From: a phage
DNA length: 64,000 bases
Assembly: GCA_012178725.1 (NCBI GenBank)
Contig: GCA_012178725.1_3030.1
Direction: 5' to 3' (one strand)
The notes under the pieces are model-generated. The model ran no database searches and had not been told where the DNA came from. It saw only the letters and a program-made list of their open reading frames with translations. This document shows, piece after piece, positions 2,094-13,119 of the stretch. The translations under genes and the position numbers were made by a program. Each line of letters begins with the position of its first letter. Within the stretch, counting starts at the first letter, position 1.

Positions 2094-3058
2094 TGTATTC
2101 TTTAGAGGAATTTAATAATCAAGCAATAAACGCAGATTTCCAACGTAATAATATGTTTAGCTGCGTTTTTGCGACAACTCCATCAACTAAAAGCTCTTCG
2201 TTGATAAGTTCAATTAGCAACTTTTCTTATAATAACTTGGGCCTAAATTCAGATTGGTTAGGATTAACTCAAGGCGATATTAATCAGGGAATTACCACGC
2301 TAATTACAGCTGGCACACAAAAACTGATAAGAAAATCAGGGGTTAGTAAATATCTTATTGGTGCCATGAGTCAACGCACAGTTCAAAGTTTATTAGGCTC
2401 ATTTACAGTTGGTACATATTTAATTGACTTCTTTAACATGGCATATAACTCATCTGGATTGATGATATATTCTGTAAAAATGCCAGAGAATAGATTATCC
2501 TATGAAACTGACTGGAACTATAATTCTCCTAATATTCGTATAACTGGAAGAGAATTAGACCCTTTGGTTATTTCATTTAGAATGGATTCAGAAGCTTGTA
2601 ACTATCGTGCAATGCAAGACTGGGTTAACTCTGTTCAAGACCCAGTAACTGGATTACGTGCTTTGCCACAAGATGTCGAGGCAGATATTCAGGTTAATCT
2701 TCATGCTCGTAATGGATTACCTCATACTGCAGTGATGTTCACTGGCTGTATTCCAATATCTGTGAGTGCTCCTGAGTTATCATATGATGGAGATAACCAA
2801 ATAACTACATTTGATGTTACTTTCGCTTATAGAGTCATGCAGGCTGGAGCAGTTGATAGACAAGCTGCCCTTGAATGGCTTGAATCTGCTACTATAAATG
2901 GTATTCAAAGCGTTCTCGGAAATAGTGGAGGTGTTACTGGACTATCTAATTCGCTTTCACGACTTAGTAGATTAGGGGGAACTGCAGGAAGCATTTCAAA
3001 TATTAATACTATGACAGGAATTGTCAATTCGCAAAGTAAAATATTGGGAGCAATATAA
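2093..3058 (+). CDS. 54: baseplate tail-tube initiator gp54
   Basis: 321 aa; start overlaps gp48 stop (translational coupling); synteny. Confidence 0.8.
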   Translation: MYSLEEFNNQAINADFQRNNMFSCVFATTPSTKSSSLISSISNFSYNNLGLNSDWLGLTQGDINQGITTLITAGTQKLIRKSGVSKYLIGAMSQRTVQSLLGSFTVGTYLIDFFNMAYNSSGLMIYSVKMPENRLSYETDWNYNSPNIRITGRELDPLVISFRMDSEACNYRAMQDWVNSVQDPVTGLRALPQDVEADIQVNLHARNGLPHTAVMFTGCIPISVSAPELSYDGDNQITTFDVTFAYRVMQAGAVDRQAALEWLESATINGIQSVLGNSGGVTGLSNSLSRLSRLGGTAGSISNINTMTGIVNSQSKILGAI

Positions 3059-3062
3059 CAAT

Positions 3063-3092
3063 GGGGACCTTTCGGTCCCCATATTTTTATTT
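3063..3092 (+). terminator. rho-independent terminator after gene 54
   Basis: GGGGACC-TTTC-GGTCCCC hairpin followed by ATATTTTTATTT. Confidence 0.7.
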
Positions 3093-3377
3093 ACGGAATG
3101 AAATGAAAGCAGAAACTGAAGCAACTAAACTGTCTTCAATATAAACTTCAATTTTTACCGGAGCTTCTGACTCAAATTTACCTGTTACTACACCCTGAAA
3201 AATACTTTCAGTTTGTTCTGGCTTTGAAAAATTTTCAGAAGGAAAAATTCCGAACTTTTTATCTGTTCCAAAAATTTTAATAAATTCATCGTAAACTGCT
3301 TCATTAAAAGCATTATCAGCAGGAATAACGCCTTCAACTACAAGTTCTTGACCTAAAAAGCGCAAAGAAGATTTCAT
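3087..3377 (-). CDS. hypothetical protein downstream of alt
   Basis: 96 aa ORF with upstream early-type promoter. Confidence 0.5.
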   Translation of the reverse strand: MKSSLRFLGQELVVEGVIPADNAFNEAVYDEFIKIFGTDKKFGIFPSENFSKPEQTESIFQGVVTGKFESEAPVKIEVYIEDSLVASVSAFISFRK

Positions 3378-3395
3378 TTTGTGTTCCTCATGTTA

Positions 3396-3430
3396 TGTCA
3401 GTAAGACTACTATAACACAACATAAGGGAC
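3396..3430 (-). promoter_or_regulatory. T4-type early promoter
   Basis: Minus strand GTTTAC, about 17 nt spacer, TGTGTTATAGT extended -10; near-identical copy at 19226-19260. Confidence 0.5.
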
Positions 3431-3437
3431 TTGTAAA

Positions 3438-5495
3438 CTACATTTTGAACTTTTTAGACATTCCGTTGATGTTAACCAAAGAAGCCAAGATTTGAGAAAC
3501 TTCGTTTTCCTCTTCTTTTGATTCTTCTACAAGAAATTGATTAAATCCAGCCATTGGACGAACTTCACCAGTTTCCATTAAATGGTCGCCATCATATACC
3601 GATTCCTCTAATTGTTCAGAAGGAGGAACGATTGTACCTTCGATTAGATACTTGTTATAAGCAGTTTCTTTCATAAAGTACGTACTTACTTTATTAATCT
3701 TCAGTAAAATTCCACGCGGTAGAATAACTTCAGCTTCTGATGGAAATCCTGATAAATGACCTGGAACGATAACTTTGATTCGCTCAGCTCCTTTAATTAC
3801 CATACCCACGCTAGTTTCAGCATCTTCATTAGCATATGTAGAATGACTACCCATATGCATCAAATCTTCTGCGTCAACTGAACCTTCTCCTTCACCAGAA
3901 AATACTGCGCCGGAATCATCTAGAGCCATATAGTTTTTACCATGCTCACCGAAGATATTTGGTTTAAGAGATGTGGATACGAAGTTCTTGAAATAGAACA
4001 TTTTGTTTTCAATGTTATGACGCAAAGTTTTAAAGGTAACTTCTTGTCCGCGATAAAGCGTAGTTCCTGGAGGAAGAACTGAACCTTTAGCGAATGCAGA
4101 ATCCAACGTCTCGATGTGCTTAATAGCTCGTTCCATATATTCTTCACGGGTAGAATCTGGTTTACCCAAAAGGAACGAGTTCATTTCAACATATGAATCT
4201 GCACAATAATCTTCAATTACATCAGATTCGGCCTGAGTCAGTCCTTTTGGAGTTACTTCAGTGCTTGCGTATTCATATGCCTGGGCAGCAGATTCATTAA
4301 TCAATTTATAAATGCCATTCATGACAAATTGAATAATAGCTGTCTTTTCATCTGGCGTAGCTTTAGAACCTTTAACTAAATCATTAATAATTTTCTTAAT
4401 AACATCAAAGCTATTAGAAATATTAATGTCAGCAAGATCGCTTAAAATTTTATCAGTTTTATAATCAAAGAATTCTTTATTCTTTAAATATTCTTGAGAA
4501 CCTTGATATGTTATATCGCTCTGCAACTTGATAGATGGATCACGTAAACGTGCGTGGGCCAATGCAATATGATTTCGGAAGTTTTCTAGTTCATAATCGC
4601 TAGATTTAAAACGAGAAGCACTTCTCATACCACCGATAGCTCCTTTGCTGAAGTTTGAACCAATCTGGATAACGCCAGAGTTCATCGGACCTTCTGCTTT
4701 ATATACCGGAACTTTAGATTCAAACTCTTGATATTTCTTTGCAGCGAAGCTATCACCCTGAAGTGAAGCATCGACAGTAGAATATTGAGCTTGTGCTGCT
4801 AATCGACGACTAATTTTAGTTTTTTGAATAACAGCTTGATCCGTGCGCTTATCATTTTCTAAAGCAATAGAAGCAGCAACAGCGACAGCTTTAGGAACAG
4901 CATTACCTGTTTTAACATCTACATAAACATCACCGACCTTTGATTCAACTTTTGTGAATAACTCAGTTGAAATAGGAGGTACACCTGGAATGTCTTCTAA
5001 ATTGGCATTTTTACGGTAAACCATAATATATGCATATTTCTTATCATAGTCCCAGATTTCCTTTAAAAGAACATATCGACCTGCTCCTTTAGTACGTACT
5101 AAACGGTCAGCAATAACTTGCATTTGACGAGCAGCGCCATTTGTTTTACTCTTTAGTACACGGAATAAGCACGCGTCAATTTTATACTGCTTCATTGTTT
5201 GAAGAGCAGTATCAAAAACAGCATTAATGACGCCAATTGGATTTCCACCCAAGTTTCTAAGCTTAACCAGTGATAATTTCTCGTTGACACCTATCATTAC
5301 GATATGCATCATTTTATCGCCTGGCTTAACGTTTTTATTTGTATCACCACCAGAGGTGTATGTACAAAATCTAAATCCAGGAAGCACGCTTTCTTCGCCG
5401 GCTTGAATAGCAAAAATTTGTGGTATTTTATGCTTAGGATTTAAGTTAACAACCGGCGCCGAAGCGCCGTCAAATAATTCTGTAATAAGTTCCAT
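3438..5495 (-). CDS. Alt-like ADP-ribosyltransferase, paralog of alt
   Basis: 685 aa; N-terminal MELITELFD propeptide-like start; C-terminal R-S-E motifs (LYRGQ, FVSTSL, EAEVILPRG); central region diverged from neighbour. Confidence 0.8.
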   Translation of the reverse strand: MELITELFDGASAPVVNLNPKHKIPQIFAIQAGEESVLPGFRFCTYTSGGDTNKNVKPGDKMMHIVMIGVNEKLSLVKLRNLGGNPIGVINAVFDTALQTMKQYKIDACLFRVLKSKTNGAARQMQVIADRLVRTKGAGRYVLLKEIWDYDKKYAYIMVYRKNANLEDIPGVPPISTELFTKVESKVGDVYVDVKTGNAVPKAVAVAASIALENDKRTDQAVIQKTKISRRLAAQAQYSTVDASLQGDSFAAKKYQEFESKVPVYKAEGPMNSGVIQIGSNFSKGAIGGMRSASRFKSSDYELENFRNHIALAHARLRDPSIKLQSDITYQGSQEYLKNKEFFDYKTDKILSDLADINISNSFDVIKKIINDLVKGSKATPDEKTAIIQFVMNGIYKLINESAAQAYEYASTEVTPKGLTQAESDVIEDYCADSYVEMNSFLLGKPDSTREEYMERAIKHIETLDSAFAKGSVLPPGTTLYRGQEVTFKTLRHNIENKMFYFKNFVSTSLKPNIFGEHGKNYMALDDSGAVFSGEGEGSVDAEDLMHMGSHSTYANEDAETSVGMVIKGAERIKVIVPGHLSGFPSEAEVILPRGILLKINKVSTYFMKETAYNKYLIEGTIVPPSEQLEESVYDGDHLMETGEVRPMAGFNQFLVEESKEEENEVSQILASLVNINGMSKKFKM

Positions 5496-5498
5496 GAT

Positions 5499-7550
5499 TT
5501 ATCCTTGAACGAACTTGTAAGGCATGTTTGCAATATCTATGCAAGACGCAATAATTCCAAGAGATGATTCTACTTTCTGTTTAACATTTGATGAAACAAA
5601 TGATGCAAAGTCAACTCTATCTTCTATATCACCTGTCATTGTAACCAATTCACCAGTTTCCATTAAATGGTCTCCGTCATAGATTACCGATTCGGTGAGT
5701 TCTTCTGTGGTCATAACTTCAGCTTGAATAAGCTTGTTGTTAGTTTTAACTGTTCCATCATTGTAAGATGCATCGGTTATTTTATTAACTTTGACCATTA
5801 ATCCACGTGGCAAAATGACTTCCATTTCATTTGAAGGCGCTAAACTTCCACCGGGTAAAACAACATTGACCTTATCAGCCCCAGTAATAACCCATCCAAT
5901 TCCGACTAAATTATCGCTAGAATTAACAAGCCCTTCATCATTTTTATCGATAGAAATGTTTAGACGCTTTTCATCTGGTAAAACACCAATAGCTGAATCA
6001 GTCATCCAAGTACCAAAAATGTTTGGATATAATGATGTTGATACAAAATTTCTAAAATAAAAAACTCGATTTTTTACCAATGTTTCATATATTGAAGGTA
6101 ACATTCGCTGTGAACGATATAAAGTAATACCCTTTGGCAATCGATCACCATTTTTAAAGGCTGAATCTAAATTATCGATGGCTTGTTCTATTTCAGGTGC
6201 TGTTAAAATACTTGTACGCTCATCTGGATTATATAATCCCAAAAGAGCATTATTCATGTCTACATATCCTGAACCTACATATTCACGAATTCCGCGTTTT
6301 TGCGCTGGTGTGTATTTAGATGAATCTTTATTTTCGACTATAGAATGCAATGACCATCCAACAGTAAGAGCATATCCACGTAATTCTCTTCGAATAATCT
6401 TTGTTTTTATTGCATTCCAAGAATTTTGCACTAACTCATTATTCGCAGCGTCTTGATTTAAATGCGAATGCTTGTTAATATTTCTTTCTAACCAAGCACC
6501 TTTATATTTTTCTAAAGTATCATCGACTATAGAAGCAATAGTTTCTAAAGTTTTTATTGAAGTAATAGATTCTTTTCGTAATCTTTCTAAAGCTTTATTT
6601 TTTATTTCTGTATTAACATCAGTTTCTTTATCTTCAGGAATTATAGAAGCTTCTCTGAATGCCATTCCAGCTGTAACACTATTAAGAGCATTCTCTAATG
6701 CAAATCCTGAAGTAGAAATAACAGTTAATTCATTAGCATCAGAAATTAAAGGAGCGTCAGCAGGTTTATTTAATTCTGCTGCTGAAGCCTCAAATTTTTG
6801 AAACATCGGTGTTTCAAATCTAGAAGATTCCAATGACTGACTTTGTGCAATTGCTCTACGTGAAATTTTAACTTTAACGATTACAGCTTGGTCAGAACGT
6901 TTATCATTTTCTTGTGCAATAGATGCTGCAATTGCCTCATTTTTAGTTACTTGAGCTCCAGTATCTTTATTGATATAAACATCGCCGACTTTCGATTCAA
7001 CTTTAGTAAAGAGCTCGGTACTAATTTCCGGAACTCCTGGAATGTCTTCTAGTGATACATTTTTGCGATGTATAAGAATATATGCATACTTTTTATCATA
7101 ATCCCAGAGTTCCTTAAGAAGGACGTATCTGCCACCTGAACGACTACGGATAAGTCTATCAGCAATAACTTGAATTTGTCGAGCTTGGCCAGCAGTTTTA
7201 GACTTAAGAATACGAAGCATACAAGCATCAATTTTATACTGACGCATTGTTTGCATTGCAACAGTAAAAACTGAATTGATATAATTAATTGGGCTTGGAC
7301 CAAGACCTTTTAATTTAGCAATTGAACCTTTAGCAGTTAATGTAAAAGGAACAATATGCATCATTTTATCGCCCATTTTTAAATCACGATTAGTATCACC
7401 TCCAGATGTATAGGTACATAAACGAAAGCCTGGTTGTTCAATTGCATCATCAACATGAACTGAAAAAATTTGTGGTATTTTCTTCTTTGGATTTAAGTTT
7501 GTAATCGGAAGAGTAGTATCTTCGTCAAATAATTCTGTAATGAGTTCCAT
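5499..7550 (-). CDS. alt: Alt ADP-ribosyltransferase (capsid-packaged, injected)
   Basis: About 683 aa from second ATG (SD GAGGA spacing); R-S-E motifs (LYRSQ, FVSTSL, EMEVILPRG); late promoter upstream; synteny between 54 and 30. Confidence 0.85.
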   Translation of the reverse strand: MELITELFDEDTTLPITNLNPKKKIPQIFSVHVDDAIEQPGFRLCTYTSGGDTNRDLKMGDKMMHIVPFTLTAKGSIAKLKGLGPSPINYINSVFTVAMQTMRQYKIDACMLRILKSKTAGQARQIQVIADRLIRSRSGGRYVLLKELWDYDKKYAYILIHRKNVSLEDIPGVPEISTELFTKVESKVGDVYINKDTGAQVTKNEAIAASIAQENDKRSDQAVIVKVKISRRAIAQSQSLESSRFETPMFQKFEASAAELNKPADAPLISDANELTVISTSGFALENALNSVTAGMAFREASIIPEDKETDVNTEIKNKALERLRKESITSIKTLETIASIVDDTLEKYKGAWLERNINKHSHLNQDAANNELVQNSWNAIKTKIIRRELRGYALTVGWSLHSIVENKDSSKYTPAQKRGIREYVGSGYVDMNNALLGLYNPDERTSILTAPEIEQAIDNLDSAFKNGDRLPKGITLYRSQRMLPSIYETLVKNRVFYFRNFVSTSLYPNIFGTWMTDSAIGVLPDEKRLNISIDKNDEGLVNSSDNLVGIGWVITGADKVNVVLPGGSLAPSNEMEVILPRGLMVKVNKITDASYNDGTVKTNNKLIQAEVMTTEELTESVIYDGDHLMETGELVTMTGDIEDRVDFASFVSSNVKQKVESSLGIIASCIDIANMPYKFVQG

Positions 7551-7573
7551 CATATCCTCTCTAGTGTTTATTC

Positions 7574-7581
7574 TATTTATA
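7574..7581 (-). promoter_or_regulatory. late promoter TATAAATA upstream of alt
   Basis: Exact TATAAATA on minus strand about 25 nt upstream of alt ATG. Confidence 0.6.
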
Positions 7582-7586
7582 AAATT

Positions 7587-7604
7587 AAAGGCCCGAAGGC
7601 CTTT
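7587..7604 (-). other. intergenic stem-loop (tetraloop hairpin)
   Basis: AAAGGCC-CGAA-GGCCTTT perfect palindrome overlapping stop of upstream ORF; possible terminator or RNA stabiliser. Confidence 0.45.
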
Positions 7605-7791
7605 AATAATCTATTGGTAAGAGAGTACGATATATTTCAAACTTTGGACCTTTTTCATAGGCATCAAAAGTTTCTGTGAATTTATTATAAGCATATGCAT
7701 CTATAAATTCAATCATGATTTGTGATACAGAAGTAGAAACATCTCCACCTTCTTTTTGAGCCACGACAATTGTTTCTAAGTAAGCTTTCAT
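7603..7791 (-). CDS. hypothetical small protein between gene 30 and alt
   Basis: 62 aa ORF overlapping ligase stop. Confidence 0.4.
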   Translation of the reverse strand: MKAYLETIVVAQKEGGDVSTSVSQIMIEFIDAYAYNKFTETFDAYEKGPKFEIYRTLLPIDY

Positions 7792-9251
7792 AAACCAGTT
7801 ACCTCATGAAAATCACCAAATACATCTTCGAATGTATTAGCTTTAGTTTTATCTTCACGTAAACGAATCGCAATCGGAAGAAATAATTTAACGTAATCAG
7901 TGCGGCCATCAGATTTTAACCAACCGTTGCATTCGCACTCTAGAATTTTTCCAATATAATAATTTTGGTTTTCCATAATGCGAGTACGGTCAAGTTCATG
8001 CGATTTTACACCGGCTTTATCTTTTAAGCCTGAACCAGCATTTACTTTAATTTTTCCACACTCTGATTCAAGAATAAATCCACCCGCTTTAGTAGGGTCT
8101 TTACGGTGAGGATAAATTCCTACAATTTTTAAATCAACATCAATTACTTCTTTAAATTTATAGAGATTTTTTGAACGAGCATTTTCCCATAATCCATCGA
8201 TATTTTTGAGAATAATACCTTCAAGACCTTGGTCAATATATTTTTTATAAATTACCTTAGCTTCATTTAGGTTATTTACTACCTGGTTTTCAATTAAAAT
8301 TACTTTATCATATCCTGATGTCATTTGTTCTAGTTTAGAAAAACGTACATCATATTTTAAACGAAACGCTGGAAGACCGTATATTTCTACCAACGGGACA
8401 TAATCCCAGACCTGAAACTTCATACATTGAGCTTCTTTTTCAGAAATGGTTCCTTTTAAGGATTTATTGGCGATTCCATTAGAAGTAGTACGAGATTCCG
8501 CTACTTCGGCGAATTCTTTAGCTTTACTAATTTCAGGATAAGCATCAAAAAGAAAATCTAGGCCTTCTGGTTCCTTTTTAACTTGCTCATGGTATACCAA
8601 TTCGCCATCAATTAACACACCTTCTGGATGAATCTGGCGGGCTTCAGCAGTCATTTTGATTAACTCTTCTTTAAGAAGATCTAATCCTAGATATTCATTA
8701 CCAGCTCGTGATAAAAGACGAACATCATCTAATTCATCGCCTCGGACTTCAGCAAAACACCGAGCTCCATCAGCTTTTAACTGCGCAAAAGCTGGAAACT
8801 TGATATTCTTACTAATGCCTTTTTCATCATAAGAACTTGCCAGCATTTGAGGTTGTTCAGGAATTAAACCTGGCCAAACTTTGTTTGCAATAGATACTGA
8901 AGCACCGCATTCAAGGTCTCGCATCATAACTCGACGCAAAACTTCAACATCATCCTTTTTACCATCGGTGATATATCCAGTTAATTCCTCAATTGCTGCA
9001 TTGCCAGTTAATTTCCGAGTAGCTAACGTGAATTCAATGAAGTCAAGCATATCGGTAATAGTCAGCATTCCAAAACTCTGGGTAGCAATACCAGGTTTAG
9101 GCCATTTCTTGATATAATACTGCAACCCACGAGAATAAGTTAAACGATATACTCGTTTAAGCAATTCATTATCTTTATTCTTTTCAAGAATTGCTTGCTT
9201 CTGCTTAGTTGAACCAATAGATGCTATTTCGTTCAGAATTTTAAGAATCAT
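7788..9251 (-). CDS. 30: ATP-dependent DNA ligase gp30
   Basis: 487 aa; KADGAR adenylation motif; recognised as T4 DNA ligase. Confidence 0.95.
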   Translation of the reverse strand: MILKILNEIASIGSTKQKQAILEKNKDNELLKRVYRLTYSRGLQYYIKKWPKPGIATQSFGMLTITDMLDFIEFTLATRKLTGNAAIEELTGYITDGKKDDVEVLRRVMMRDLECGASVSIANKVWPGLIPEQPQMLASSYDEKGISKNIKFPAFAQLKADGARCFAEVRGDELDDVRLLSRAGNEYLGLDLLKEELIKMTAEARQIHPEGVLIDGELVYHEQVKKEPEGLDFLFDAYPEISKAKEFAEVAESRTTSNGIANKSLKGTISEKEAQCMKFQVWDYVPLVEIYGLPAFRLKYDVRFSKLEQMTSGYDKVILIENQVVNNLNEAKVIYKKYIDQGLEGIILKNIDGLWENARSKNLYKFKEVIDVDLKIVGIYPHRKDPTKAGGFILESECGKIKVNAGSGLKDKAGVKSHELDRTRIMENQNYYIGKILECECNGWLKSDGRTDYVKLFLPIAIRLREDKTKANTFEDVFGDFHEVTGL

Positions 9252-9517
9252 TGTTCATCCTTTAGAGTTTGGTTTACAGCTCTATTATAAATCAATTCAT
9301 CATTAAGCTCAGTCAAAGACCTGTGGTACGTGGTTCTAACTTTATTTCCTTGCATCCAGTGCTTGACGTAAATGAAACCTTGTTCTACGCATTTTTTAAA
9401 AATTCGTTCGTCTTTTTGAGCACGGAATTCTGGATTGCATCTAAAAAATTGATTTACGTGACCGTAATCACGTGTAGTATTACCTTCATTTTCATAAATA
9501 GTATGAACAACAAACAT
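9248..9517 (-). CDS. hypothetical protein (30.1-like position)
   Basis: 89 aa ORF overlapping neighbours by 4 nt. Confidence 0.5.
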   Translation of the reverse strand: MFVVHTIYENEGNTTRDYGHVNQFFRCNPEFRAQKDERIFKKCVEQGFIYVKHWMQGNKVRTTYHRSLTELNDELIYNRAVNQTLKDEQ

Positions 9518-10359
9518 TAGAATGCTCCTTGAAAAATATTATCACCACTAGTAGGTCTATTATACAAATACTCTATGCCACCAGGTTTAATATAGTTCCA
9601 TGTATGAAATGGATGCACATGATATGGATGTGTATAATATGGATGGTATGGATTTAATCCAGGAGTTCTCCAGGTAGTATTCCAACGAAAAGAATCGTTT
9701 TTAATCATCTTTTCAATTGCATCTTTTACAGCTTTTTCACTATCAAAACTTTCTTTATTTTCCTTCAATGGAAAAAGCTTATTCTCTACATCATTCCATG
9801 TATAAACTCGCTGAGCAGTTTTTGGAATACTGTCACGTTCCCCTCGAGCCATCCAATACACAGGAACACGTAATATTTCACTCGCATGATCGCAGTGATG
9901 AGCGAGATCGTCAATATAACAAATTACGTTATATTTCTCTTTTGCCTTTTTGAACAACTCTTCTTTTGAAGAATCATGACCACACATCATTACTTCTGAG
10001 AAGGCACCAGGAAAAAGAGCATTCAAATTAAATTGACGATTCAGCAGAGCGTCAATAGAATCACCCAGCGCTGTAACAGCTACAAAATTATAATCTTCTT
10101 TTAACTTGTTAATTACACACAGAGCATCTTTATATGGAGACAAGTAACGAATAAAATCTGATCGATTGTATTTTTCAATTAACTTAACACCAAGTTCTTC
10201 ATCACAATTAAAAAGTTTACCTGGAGAAATAAATTTCTCATCTTGGATCATTTTTAAAATATGTTCCAACGGAAGATTATATTTCTGAGCAAAATAAGGA
10301 AGGCCTGATTGCCAGCTTAAACATACTCCATCAATATCAGTTAAAATAGTAGGCTTCAT
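9517..10359 (-). CDS. HAD-superfamily hydrolase-like protein with His/Tyr-rich C-terminal tail
   Basis: N-terminal DIDGV (HAD motif I), later ICYIDD; C-terminus PYHPYYTHPYHVHPFHTW. Confidence 0.55.
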   Translation of the reverse strand: MKPTILTDIDGVCLSWQSGLPYFAQKYNLPLEHILKMIQDEKFISPGKLFNCDEELGVKLIEKYNRSDFIRYLSPYKDALCVINKLKEDYNFVAVTALGDSIDALLNRQFNLNALFPGAFSEVMMCGHDSSKEELFKKAKEKYNVICYIDDLAHHCDHASEILRVPVYWMARGERDSIPKTAQRVYTWNDVENKLFPLKENKESFDSEKAVKDAIEKMIKNDSFRWNTTWRTPGLNPYHPYYTHPYHVHPFHTWNYIKPGGIEYLYNRPTSGDNIFQGAF

Positions 10360-10820
10360 AGAGAGTCTCTTAATAGGTTTAACACATCAATAAATTCAGC
10401 TTCGGTTAGTATTGTATCATCTTTTGTTAGACCACTAGCCATGCTGTGCTTCAAAACTTTTCCTTTCGAGGCTTGTAATGCATCACGAAAGCCCTTGTTT
10501 TGAATCGCTGCTTCAAAATATGCATTTGTGTATAATTCTTTCCACGCTGGGGAGTATCTTGAAAACGGAACTCCAAGCCAGAAGAGGGTCCCACGGTCCT
10601 GAGCTCTAGCATAAGACCTTCCAGCTTGTTGGGCGGCAAGCCCGGATAACCCAAATATACGACGTTGTTGTTCAACATTTTTCACCTTGCATCCTTGGAG
10701 GAATCCTTCAAGACCTCCAAATTGAATATCATCCATAACGAAAGGCCATTGGGCGAAATTACTTAATGCACATGATGGCCACCTAAAATTGCTTCTAATC
10801 TCTAGCTCAGACATTTTCAA
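10356..10820 (-). CDS. NADAR-domain protein (YbiA-like)
   Basis: 154 aa; LSNFAQWP ... EGFLQGCK matches NADAR core FSNFAxWP ... EHYFQAQK. Confidence 0.65.
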   Translation of the reverse strand: MKMSELEIRSNFRWPSCALSNFAQWPFVMDDIQFGGLEGFLQGCKVKNVEQQRRIFGLSGLAAQQAGRSYARAQDRGTLFWLGVPFSRYSPAWKELYTNAYFEAAIQNKGFRDALQASKGKVLKHSMASGLTKDDTILTEAEFIDVLNLLRDSL

Positions 10821-11013
10821 TGCTTATAATTTCAACATCAGCCCAATGACCATAGTTTGGTAGACGAAATTCAACTGGCCAGTCACTGCCTTTTTCTAAT
10901 ATAATAGACTTAACTTGTGGTTCTTCGTGTTCATCAGTATATGGATTTTTATCTGTTACTTTATATGTGACCTTAATGTACTGAATTCCAAAAATCTTAT
11001 TAATTATATTCAT
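10807..11013 (-). CDS. hypothetical small protein
   Basis: 68 aa ORF in tightly packed early gene array. Confidence 0.45.
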   Translation of the reverse strand: MNIINKIFGIQYIKVTYKVTDKNPYTDEHEEPQVKSIILEKGSDWPVEFRLPNYGHWADVEIISIENV

Positions 11014-11207
11014 ACTAATTCCTTTAATCCGTAAATAGGAGATAATTCATCACCCATACGAAGGTCTTCATTTCCATCTACCCAAGAAACAATATAAGCC
11101 TCTTTTATTTGAATACCACTCCATTTAAATGGAGGTAGAACCTTAGAAATTAATCCAGGTATACCAACTCCCTTTAATTCAACAGTTTGACCTAAAAAGA
11201 ATTTCAT
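11010..11207 (-). CDS. hypothetical small protein
   Basis: 65 aa ORF, overlaps neighbours by 1-4 nt. Confidence 0.45.
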   Translation of the reverse strand: MKFFLGQTVELKGVGIPGLISKVLPPFKWSGIQIKEAYIVSWVDGNEDLRMGDELSPIYGLKELV

Positions 11208-11494
11208 TAGAACCTCATCTGAAAACCGTGCGATTTAACATTACCGCTGCCAATATCAGAAATGTTAATTTCACGCGCAATTGAAGGGTCAATGTCAATT
11301 TCGCGATTGAGTTTAGTGATAGCTAAAGTATCGCGCCCATTTACAGTACGGAACTCTAAAGGACATACTACATTAACGTAGTTTTTAATCGATTCGCTGG
11401 TAGGTTGCAAATGAGCAGGAAGGTCTTTAGGCGCCTTAGAGAAAACCACTTCACAGAAGTTTTTACGAGTATCAAAATAAGTAGTCATAAACAT
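11207..11494 (-). CDS. hypothetical protein
   Basis: 95 aa ORF with GAGGAAAA SD 7 nt upstream. Confidence 0.5.
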   Translation of the reverse strand: MFMTTYFDTRKNFCEVVFSKAPKDLPAHLQPTSESIKNYVNVVCPLEFRTVNGRDTLAITKLNREIDIDPSIAREINISDIGSGNVKSHGFQMRF

Positions 11495-11511
11495 AGTATT
11501 TTCCTCAGCAA

Positions 11512-11525
11512 GGGGCCGAAGCCCC
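11512..11525 (-). other. intergenic tetraloop hairpin
   Basis: GGGGC-CGAA-GCCCC (UUCG on minus) between two minus-strand ORFs, just upstream of SD. Confidence 0.45.
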
Positions 11526-11535
11526 TCATTTTATT

Positions 11536-11913
11536 TTAAATATCAAATTCGTTAAGAACTACATCAAAGATTGCTTCAAGATGCTCAGGTTTAGCTCTAT
11601 TACTCAGAATATGACGAATCCAAGTTTTAACCAAAAGCTTGCGATTAGCACCATTCCAGCAAGGATGAGTCCCTAAATCACGTTGACGAAAATCATCATC
11701 CAGAGCGATTTTGAAGTTTGAACCTTCCATTGTGATTGAAACCGTGATTCCATTTTCAAATCGCATATAAACGTAGTTAGGAGTCATATACTGTTCAATT
11801 TCGCATACTGATCCATTTTGATGTTTCCAAAGGCAGATAGTATCAATAGAACCTGCAATACCATTAGAAACATATTTACGTTCAAAGTTGATGTAGTTCA
11901 TTTTATTCTCCAA
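11536..11913 (-). CDS. hypothetical protein
   Basis: 125 aa ORF. Confidence 0.5.
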   Translation of the reverse strand: MENKMNYINFERKYVSNGIAGSIDTICLWKHQNGSVCEIEQYMTPNYVYMRFENGITVSITMEGSNFKIALDDDFRQRDLGTHPCWNGANRKLLVKTWIRHILSNRAKPEHLEAIFDVVLNEFDI

Positions 11914-11970
11914 GATGTTTAATTGCGGTACAGGTATATAATATCATATCCTGTACCAAAGTAAACTATT

Positions 11971-12339
11971 TTATGCAACTTTAATCCAATTATCTAAATT
12001 TAATTCACCTTTGGCTTTCATTTTTTCAATCAAGAGGTCAGCGGTAATACGACCATTTTGATACCACGTAACATCTTCAGAGTAACCAGTTTCTTTATCT
12101 TCATAAGTCTCACAACGAATTTTACCAATAATCAAAGTTTTCAATTCGTATGTATCTCCAGTAAAAAAGTTAGTTAACATTATTTTCCAAGAGAAATCAT
12201 CAGAAGGACCTTCAGGAGTCATGCAACCTACAAATTCAAATTGTTCTTTGTATAAGTGCCACTGAAGTTCTTTAGTTTCGATAGCTTTATAGCCGTCGTG
12301 ATCTTTACCTTTGATGTATGAGTTAAGATTGATTTTCAT
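11971..12339 (-). CDS. hypothetical protein
   Basis: 122 aa ORF with own early promoter. Confidence 0.5.
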   Translation of the reverse strand: MKINLNSYIKGKDHDGYKAIETKELQWHLYKEQFEFVGCMTPEGPSDDFSWKIMLTNFFTGDTYELKTLIIGKIRCETYEDKETGYSEDVTWYQNGRITADLLIEKMKAKGELNLDNWIKVA

Positions 12340-12361
12340 TTTATTCTCCTTTGTTTGTGTA

Positions 12362-12398
12362 AGATAATACTATCACAAAGGAACTATACTGTAAACAA
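12362..12398 (-). promoter_or_regulatory. T4-type early promoter
   Basis: GTTTAC, 17 nt spacer, ATAGTATTAT on minus strand. Confidence 0.5.
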
Positions 12399-12411
12399 CT
12401 TTATGCAATCT

Positions 12412-12444
12412 TTGGAAAATAAAAAAGGACTCCCGAAGGAGTCC
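12412..12444 (-). terminator. rho-independent terminator
   Basis: GGACTCC-UUCG-GGAGTCC followed by UUUUUUAUUUU on minus strand, directly after stop of ORF 12450-12668. Confidence 0.7.
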
Positions 12445-12449
12445 TCAAC

Positions 12450-12668
12450 TTATGCTTTCTGCTTACCAAAACGAGAAGCATCATCTCGAAGAACCGCACG
12501 TGCTCGGCGCATGATCTTCTCAACAGTTTGATTGATACGAGAGTTCGACCCACGCTTGTAGCCAGCGCGTTTAGAATCACCAACTTTCTTTTCAACTGCT
12601 TTCTTTGCTTTAACTTGTTTTGCCATTATAAATTCTCTTTTAAATGAAAATGCAGGACTTATTGGCAT
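12450..12668 (-). CDS. small highly basic protein (start may be internal ATG at 12626)
   Basis: Lys/Arg-rich 58-72 aa (MAKQVKAKKAVEKKVGDSKRAGYKRG...); followed by strong terminator. Confidence 0.5.
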   Translation of the reverse strand: MPISPAFSFKREFIMAKQVKAKKAVEKKVGDSKRAGYKRGSNSRINQTVEKIMRRARAVLRDDASRFGKQKA

Positions 12669-12870
12669 TGCCTGCGCAAGCCCTCAAGGGGGTACTTAGG
12701 TTTTGTATATTTACCGACAGGATAACCATAAACCCGTCATCATTCACATTCAAGAGGTACACCGTAAAACTGCCGGGGTCTTAAAACTATAATGATTCGC
12801 AAATCATTAATCAGACAGTTCGACGGCTCCTCGATTTTAGCTCACACTAAGGCAGTGAATCTCCAATAAA

Positions 12871-13119
12871 TTACTTCAGTGTTACCACAAAGTGACGAAC
12901 TGCTTTTCGTGCAGCAGAAGCCAGAGGCTTAGCATATTTAAGTTCATCTTTTTCCTGAAGCTCAGCAGCTAATGCAGTTTGAGCAGGATTCAGATGTTTG
13001 AAATAACGCAGGATTTCAAGAGCTTCGGCTTCAACATCAATAGATGCGCCATAGTTTTCGTGACCATTATTCCATGCGTTTCGTTGCAGTTCAAGAGCGT
13101 GTTGTAATTGTTTAATCAT
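12871..13119 (-). CDS. rIII: rIII lysis-inhibition accessory protein
   Basis: 82 aa; position between 31 and the 30.x block; recognised as T4 rIII. Confidence 0.8.
   Translation of the reverse strand: MIKQLQHALELQRNAWNNGHENYGASIDVEAEALEILRYFKHLNPAQTALAAELQEKDELKYAKPLASAARKAVRHFVVTLK

Follow-up and report, generated by a model that had tools for sequence, protein, structure and literature searches.

Herein, a 64,000-nucleotide stretch of phage DNA (NCBI GenBank assembly GCA_012178725.1, contig GCA_012178725.1_3030.1; referred to as the window) was analyzed at a locus that carries two adjacent genes of the Alt type. The T4 member of this family, gpAlt, is an NAD+:arginine ADP-ribosyltransferase (ART). 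The window covers part of a T4-like (Tequatrovirus) genome. The C-terminal part of gene 29 and genes 48 and 54 lie on the plus strand and are followed on the minus strand by alt.-3, copy B, copy A, alt.1 and gene 30; the same order (gp48, gp54, alt.-3, B, A, alt.1, ligase) is annotated in AR1, T6 and T4T. The two open reading frames (ORFs) and the signals directly in front of them are as follows.

3438-5495, minus strand: copy B, ORF of a full-length Alt paralogue, 685 amino acids
5499-7550, minus strand: copy A, ORF of the T4 alt orthologue, 683 amino acids from the second ATG (684 from the first ATG at 7553)
7574-7581, minus strand: T4-type late promoter TATAAATA, exact match, about 20 nucleotides upstream of the copy A ATG
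5502-5506, minus strand: Shine-Dalgarno sequence AAGGA for copy B, in the last codons of copy A, 6 nucleotides before the copy B ATG

We consider it very probable that this is a two-gene tandem alt locus of the kind routine in T-even (Tequatrovirus) phages, with copy B as a functional Alt paralogue. The gap between the two genes is 3 nucleotides, with the stop codon of copy A at 5499-5501 and the ATG of copy B at 5493-5495. Copy A shares 97% identity with T4T Alt. Its listed ORF begins with MMELITELF; the second ATG (7550) gives MELITELF and was preferred as the start because it matches the annotated T4 Alt start and has a better spacing to the Shine-Dalgarno sequence GAGAGGA.

The two proteins were compared along their length. 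Their paralogy is clear from BLASTP (E = 8e-159, 41% identity) and from a MAFFT alignment (46% identity over the aligned positions). Both begin with MELITELFD, and when residues 1-240 were taken in blocks of 50, the identity of each block was 54-76%. Over residues about 241-410 the identity of the forced alignment is 22-24% with many gaps. It reaches 39-50% in the stretches near the catalytic Arg and the S-T-S motif, is about 20% in an insertion-rich loop, and is 61% in a conserved C-terminal patch. When the central modules of about 180 residues were compared alone, no BLASTP match was obtained even at E <= 100, and the profile-profile comparison by hhalign gave a probability of 1.3%. These results hold the two central modules to be unrelated at the sequence level. 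Across the 18 homologues, at least five sequence types of this module, all similar in length, can be told apart. A second difference lies next to the active site. In the 18-sequence alignment, an aromatic residue stands 3-4 positions before E-x-E in B-type proteins (GFPSEAE, EYPEEAE); it is absent in copy A proteins of both the T4 type (APSNEME) and the T6 type (PQSQEME).

The number of synonymous substitutions per site (dS) between A and B is 1.3-2.0 and is saturated throughout, which indicates, at the sequence level, that the duplication is old. Over residues 1-240 the dS value is 1.45. The similarity of the N-terminal domain therefore reflects constraint and not recent gene conversion, which was ruled out as the source of the conserved N-terminus.

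The catalytic motifs are present in both copies. In copy A these are the R in LYRSQ, the STS in FVSTSL and the ExE in NEMEVILPRG; in copy B they are LYRGQ, FVSTSL and SEAEVILPRG. R482, S507, S509, E587 and E589 (copy B numbering) are invariant in the 18-sequence alignment, which includes A and B. The Pfam domain PF03496 (ADPrib_exo_Tox) was detected in copy A with an E-value of 4e-34 (118.1 bits) and in copy B with 5.8e-20 (71.9 bits), against a gathering cut-off of 23.4. The profile phrog_802, "Alt-like RNA polymerase ADP-ribosyltransferase", covers residues 1-682 of copy A (1.3e-263) and 1-685 of copy B (1.8e-256). PF26846 (Tevenvirinae_ADPRT), which stands for the N-terminal alpha/beta domain of about 240 residues, is recorded, as a precomputed assignment, on the protein cluster of copy B and on its relatives. 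An earlier note on this DNA had described two minus-strand ORFs of 685 and about 683 amino acids with a shared N-terminus (MELITELFD and the first 230 residues or so), unrelated central regions and C-terminal R-S-E motifs in both copies. Each of these observations agrees with the data above, coordinates included, and none of the catalytic residues that careful alignment might have found missing from the downstream copy has been lost.

An AlphaFold2 model of copy B has a mean predicted local distance difference test score (pLDDT) of 71 and reaches about 80-90 in the domain cores. It consists of an N-terminal alpha/beta part (about 12-215), an all-helical center (about 240-470) and an ART core (about 480-622), with low-confidence stretches at 517-555 and 629-663. 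In this model the catalytic domain is predicted to be an ART fold of the Vis/C3/iota type. A sequence search of the Protein Data Bank returned no match for copy B and only marginal CdtA matches for copy A (E about 2e-3), and because of this result there is no solved Alt structure to anchor the residues. In this clade, an ARTT motif of the E-x-E form is associated with specificity for arginine, and this form fits Arg265 as the target of T4 Alt. Copy B thus sits within the T4 Alt family by its full-length profile, ART domain, R-S-E/E-x-E residues, modeled ART fold and locus.

One further motif, Y-D-G-D-x-[LM]-[LM]-E-[TS]-G-E, shows little or no variation among the 18 homologues. It occupies residues 634-644 of copy B (3564-3596, minus strand), and the same stretch is found in copy A. 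In the copy B model it sits in a low-pLDDT, apparently disordered linker. The L-x-E followed by a small residue within this motif resembles the consensus of the gp21 prohead protease. As a speculation, the motif may be a C-terminal processing site.

The pair was then found to be common. With a 5-kb DNA query, 392 phage records cover at least 80% of window positions 3000-8000. Copy B is present at 95% or higher amino acid identity in about 397 GenBank phage records, T6 and PP01 among them; of 60 rows sampled, each one that fell in the bands at or above 95% was a single-piece, full-length match. AR1 carries the same 685-amino-acid copy B gene. The locus is annotated in many records as "Alt-like RNA polymerase ADP-ribosyltransferase (x2)", "alt (x2)" or "alt_1/alt_2", and the records of AR1, T6, JK08 (alt_1/alt_2) and SP18 (alta/altb) explicitly list both genes. 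Two intact genes are the majority state, in about 400 of about 500 records (about 80% of close relatives), and the T4-type deletion described below defines a minority lineage.

The pair is already known, since hundreds of records carry these annotations, and how it relates to T4 alt.-1/alt.-2 is given in GenBank notes and in Nolan et al. 2006. That work reported that 44RR has a second alt of full length, and it regarded T4 alt.-1/alt.-2 as paralogues of alt (PMC1524935). The literature searches returned this comparative-genomics remark from 2006 and no functional study of the second alt copy. A bNACHT preprint was discarded as "alt" literature; its matches were merely the word "alter". The earlier note had implied that the pair is unusual, and the record counts do not bear this out. 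It had also named, as what would refute it, that T4 and its relatives routinely carry the same two genes with known roles. The routine presence stands for the relatives, with a remnant in T4; the known roles do not, as no study of them was found. Its statement that the T4 reference has a single alt is correct in the sense of one intact gene, the second copy being reduced to alt.-1/alt.-2.

The reduction in T4 was followed at the nucleotide level. The DNA after alt in T4T aligns with copy B nucleotides 1-348 (94% identity) and continues directly with copy B nucleotides 2039-2058. The breakpoints share an imperfect 9-nucleotide direct repeat, CTAAA(G/A)AGT, with the following two versions.

5148-5156, minus strand: CTAAAGAGT, 5' microhomology at copy B nucleotides 340-348, start of the T4-lineage deletion, from the junction comparison
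3449-3457, minus strand: CTAAAAAGT, 3' microhomology at copy B nucleotides 2039-2047, end of the T4-lineage deletion, from the junction comparison

Therefore, T4 alt.-1/alt.-2 is the frameshifted stump of copy B left by a deletion of about 1.69 kb between 9-nucleotide microhomologies. With a query across the T4-type junction, contiguous matches were obtained in 91 records, among them T4 isolates, RB55, RB59 and HY03. The profiles phrog_23015 and phrog_15247 (61 and 67 positions) match copy B residues 1-56 and 62-117, and match B better than A. The GenBank note of T4T calls alt.-1/alt.-2 the remnant of a second alt after deletion, and in that of AF158101 they are described as an "old duplication of the first part of gene alt".

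The existence of a stump in T4 raises the question of whether copy B elsewhere is a decaying or non-functional duplicate heading to the same state, since T4 and its relatives hold fragments only and single-gene hybrid loci also exist. The selection data already contradict this. Compared with the AR1 and T6 orthologues, copy B has a ratio of nonsynonymous to synonymous substitution rates (dN/dS) of 0.03-0.06 at a dS of 0.13-0.20, values that indicate strong purifying selection in these alignments. Its ORF is intact over all 685 amino acids, so that copy B is neither a pseudogene nor a remnant by these measures. It is kept at 95% identity or more in the roughly 397 records above, its catalytic residues are all invariant, and the protein cluster closest to it has 772 member sequences. 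Decay is thus highly improbable.

The same deletion bears on a second alternative, the main rival to distinct targets, in which copy B would be active and packaged and would be redundant with copy A, acting on the same targets (e.g., Arg265 in the alpha subunit of RNA polymerase) as extra dosage or backup. T4 loses copy B without a known defect, and the 91 records with its deletion junction point the same way, as do the catalytic motifs, N-terminal domain and operon common to A and B. However, the duplication is old, with synonymous sites saturated, yet both copies are under purifying selection. No similarity could be detected between their central modules, and the difference in the ARTT loop is systematic. 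Such a divergence pattern is typical of sub- or neo-functionalized paralogues and unexpected for a dosage duplicate. We therefore consider redundancy unlikely.

The expression signals of the locus were examined next to those of its neighbors, which are listed here.

3061-3082, both strands: bidirectional hairpin terminator between alt.-3 (minus) and gene 54 (plus), from the terminator scan, with a 9-bp stem and 6 GC pairs
3087-3377, minus strand: alt.-3, 96 amino acids, DUF5498 (PF17602, 5.4e-64), last gene of the same-strand block, named alt.-3 in AR1 and T4T
3409-3437, minus strand: early-type sigma-70 promoter match, (G)TTTACA, 17-nucleotide spacer and TG-extended TATAGT, right after the copy B stop; it scored 10/12 with TG in the scan and is a consensus match only
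7587-7604, minus strand: hairpin AAAGGCC-TTCG-GGCCTTT followed by AATTTT, read from the sequence, right after the alt.1 stop and before the late promoter
7603-7791, minus strand: alt.1, 62 amino acids (PF24647 "Phage blade protein", 7.5e-29)
7788-9251, minus strand: gene 30, ORF of the DNA ligase

The late promoter TATAAATA at 7574-7581 is the only exact match on the minus strand within 3000-13000, and matches with one mismatch are at chance level (177 found vs 195 expected). The late promoter was thus found upstream of copy A only, as had been claimed from the sequence at the outset. No promoter can fit between A and B because the gap is 3 nucleotides, and the terminator scan found no terminator-like site between the late promoter and the 3061-3082 hairpin, hence none between the two genes. 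With a single late promoter, late co-expression of A and B is plausible. Copy B has no promoter of its own, and its transcription would rely on read-through. The 3061-3082 hairpin is likely the end of the late alt transcript. The 7587-7604 hairpin likely serves as the terminator of early read-through from gene 30 and alt.1, and the promoter-like site at 3409-3437 would allow alt.-3 to be expressed early by itself. Most simply, these signals are read as one putative late operon, A-B(-alt.-3), of which alt.-3 would also be expressed early.

Copy B could also be made and not packaged, acting late in the producing cell or arising from a cryptic early or middle promoter in the manner of ModA/ModB. 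Head packaging of copy B is putative, and sigma-70-like hexamer matches do occur inside the 3' part of copy A, e.g., at 5788-5760. However, such sites are at chance level (19 found vs 18.7 expected) and give no support for an internal promoter for B; copy B lies only 3 nucleotides behind a late gene, and it keeps the MELITE/LFD peptide and the N-terminal domain, both missing from ModA/ModB. An unpackaged copy B is accordingly very unlikely.

Two observations concern the small neighbors of the pair. The alt.1 orthologue is labeled "siderophore-interacting protein" in some GenBank records, e.g., T6 NC_054907, and this label seems to be an annotation error passed on between records. T4 mutants whose Alt.-3 carries a C-terminal extension evade the CmdTAC defense by blocking ClpP-dependent degradation of CmdA, and the wild-type function of Alt.-3 was left unassigned in that study (bioRxiv 10.1101/2024.02.24.581662).

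The sequence of copy A is mosaic among T-even phages. In a comparison with T6 (L003:1904-3997), the two copy A proteins agree at 100% over residues 1-250 and at about 97% over the last 40 or so residues, but at only 18-70% in the central and catalytic part between. The T4-type center of copy A was found at 90% identity or more in 174 records. Among the sampled Tequatrovirus records, others (e.g., RB51, KIT03 and PE37) have a copy A center of about 49% identity, like that of T6. At the sequence level, the mosaicism looks like cassette exchange between conserved flanks.

Hybrid genes were also found. Protein clusters P0003, P0005 and P0006 are A/B hybrids, of the A type at the N-terminus and of the B type over the rest, and their crossovers are clean and independent, at residues of about 38, 164 and 206. 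The P0005 hybrid (L007:5001-7055, Logan SRR24155011) is the sole alt gene between alt.1 and alt.-3. The hybrid genes therefore point to unequal recombination between tandem copies; as judged from the sequences, they imply that such events within the conserved N-terminal region have reduced the pair to a single gene repeatedly. The mosaic and hybrid observations fit a modular, recombining effector locus, and they leave the conclusion on the routine pair unchanged.

The locus was compared with known systems. T4 gpAlt (UniProt family "Alt"; phrog_802; PF26846 and PF03496) has copy A as its 97% orthologue. Copy B resembles gpAlt in length, three-part architecture, N-terminal peptide, R-S-E/ExE residues and locus, and differs from it by an overall identity of about 46%, a central module that cannot be aligned, another ARTT loop and different insertions in the ART domain. 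The second alt genes of other T-evens (T6 KMB99_gp201, AR1_201, JK08 alt_2 and the RB32/RB51 type) are 98-100% identical to copy B and occupy the same position. T6 pairs this copy B with a T6-type copy A, whereas the window pairs it with a T4-type copy A. Tandem Alt paralogues in the same place, between gene 30 and alt.-3/gene 54, are also present in the Shigella phage SP18 of the genus Gaprivervirus (alta/altb) and in 44RR (ORF187c/alt; PMC1524935). These copies are distant, at about 30% identity, and the likeness is one of a tandem pair and its locus. The R-S-E ARTs of the C3-like and binary-toxin groups (Vis, C3bot, CDTa, iota/CPILE-a, VIP2 and Certhrax) have neither the Tevenvirinae N-terminal domain nor the helical central module, and they are secreted toxins, not virion-packaged proteins. 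T4 ModA and ModB are R-S-E ARTs of the same phage group that act on host transcription and translation proteins (PMC2988021, PMC5512222). They differ from Alt in being early, unpackaged proteins of about 200 amino acids without the N-terminal and central domains.

The route of T4 gpAlt through infection serves as the model for both copies. The scaffolding core contains about 40 copies of gpAlt, from which gp21 cleaves off a short peptide at the N-terminus (PMC9958956). The protein is injected with the DNA and ADP-ribosylates Arg265 in the alpha subunit of RNA polymerase together with other host proteins (PMC9958956, PMC2988021, PMC5512222). In the window, one transcript would run from TATAAATA (7574-7581) through A, B and alt.-3 to the 3061-3082 hairpin, all of whose sequence elements are seen. 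Copy B would be translated from its own Shine-Dalgarno sequence, 3 nucleotides past the stop of copy A. The MELITE/LFD start, with its I-x-E motif, and the N-terminal domain of about 240 residues would direct both proteins into the prohead core, and the gp21 protease would remove a short N-terminal peptide from both, by analogy with T4 gpAlt. Copy B most likely takes the gpAlt route because it shares the MELITE/LFD start and the N-terminal domain with gpAlt and its active site is intact. After this, both proteins would enter the host together with the DNA and would mono-ADP-ribosylate arginines of host proteins through the R / S-T-S / E-x-E site, of which the residues are observed and the fold is modeled.

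At the last step, the all-helical central module and the ARTT loop differences may give the two proteins distinct sets of host targets. Different target sets are favored because the central modules and the ARTT loop differ, and we lean modestly toward A and B modifying different host proteins. The best reading of the locus is that both copies are late-expressed, head-packaged, arginine-specific ARTs, probably with different host targets, as suggested by their sequences and by the T4 protein.

Several points weigh against this reading. An intact copy B is missing from T4 and about 90 other records, which makes the gene dispensable, at least on laboratory hosts. Late transcription, packaging, cleavage and activity of copy B are predictions. 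Distinct targets are argued from sequence divergence alone; the role of the central module in substrate choice is putative, and the two modules could still share a fold. In addition, the 7587-7604 hairpin was not called by the consensus terminator scan.

Set against these points, the reading of two packaged enzymes with different targets can be extended, tentatively and with slightly less than even confidence. T4 Alt is reported to act on MazF. Copy B may be a second packaged and injected arginine ART with its own targets, perhaps a defense or toxin protein, that has stayed unstudied because T4 deleted it. Its central module and ARTT loop would form an exchangeable targeting cassette, and the copy A alleles and the hybrids may represent shuffling in an arms race.

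As a genomic feature, the tandem pair adds nothing new, and its remaining value is practical. T4, the best-studied phage, is without a gene that is retained, under strong purifying selection, in about 80% of its close relatives. The ADP-ribosylation repertoire that natural T-even phages inject into their hosts is probably broader than the T4 literature describes.

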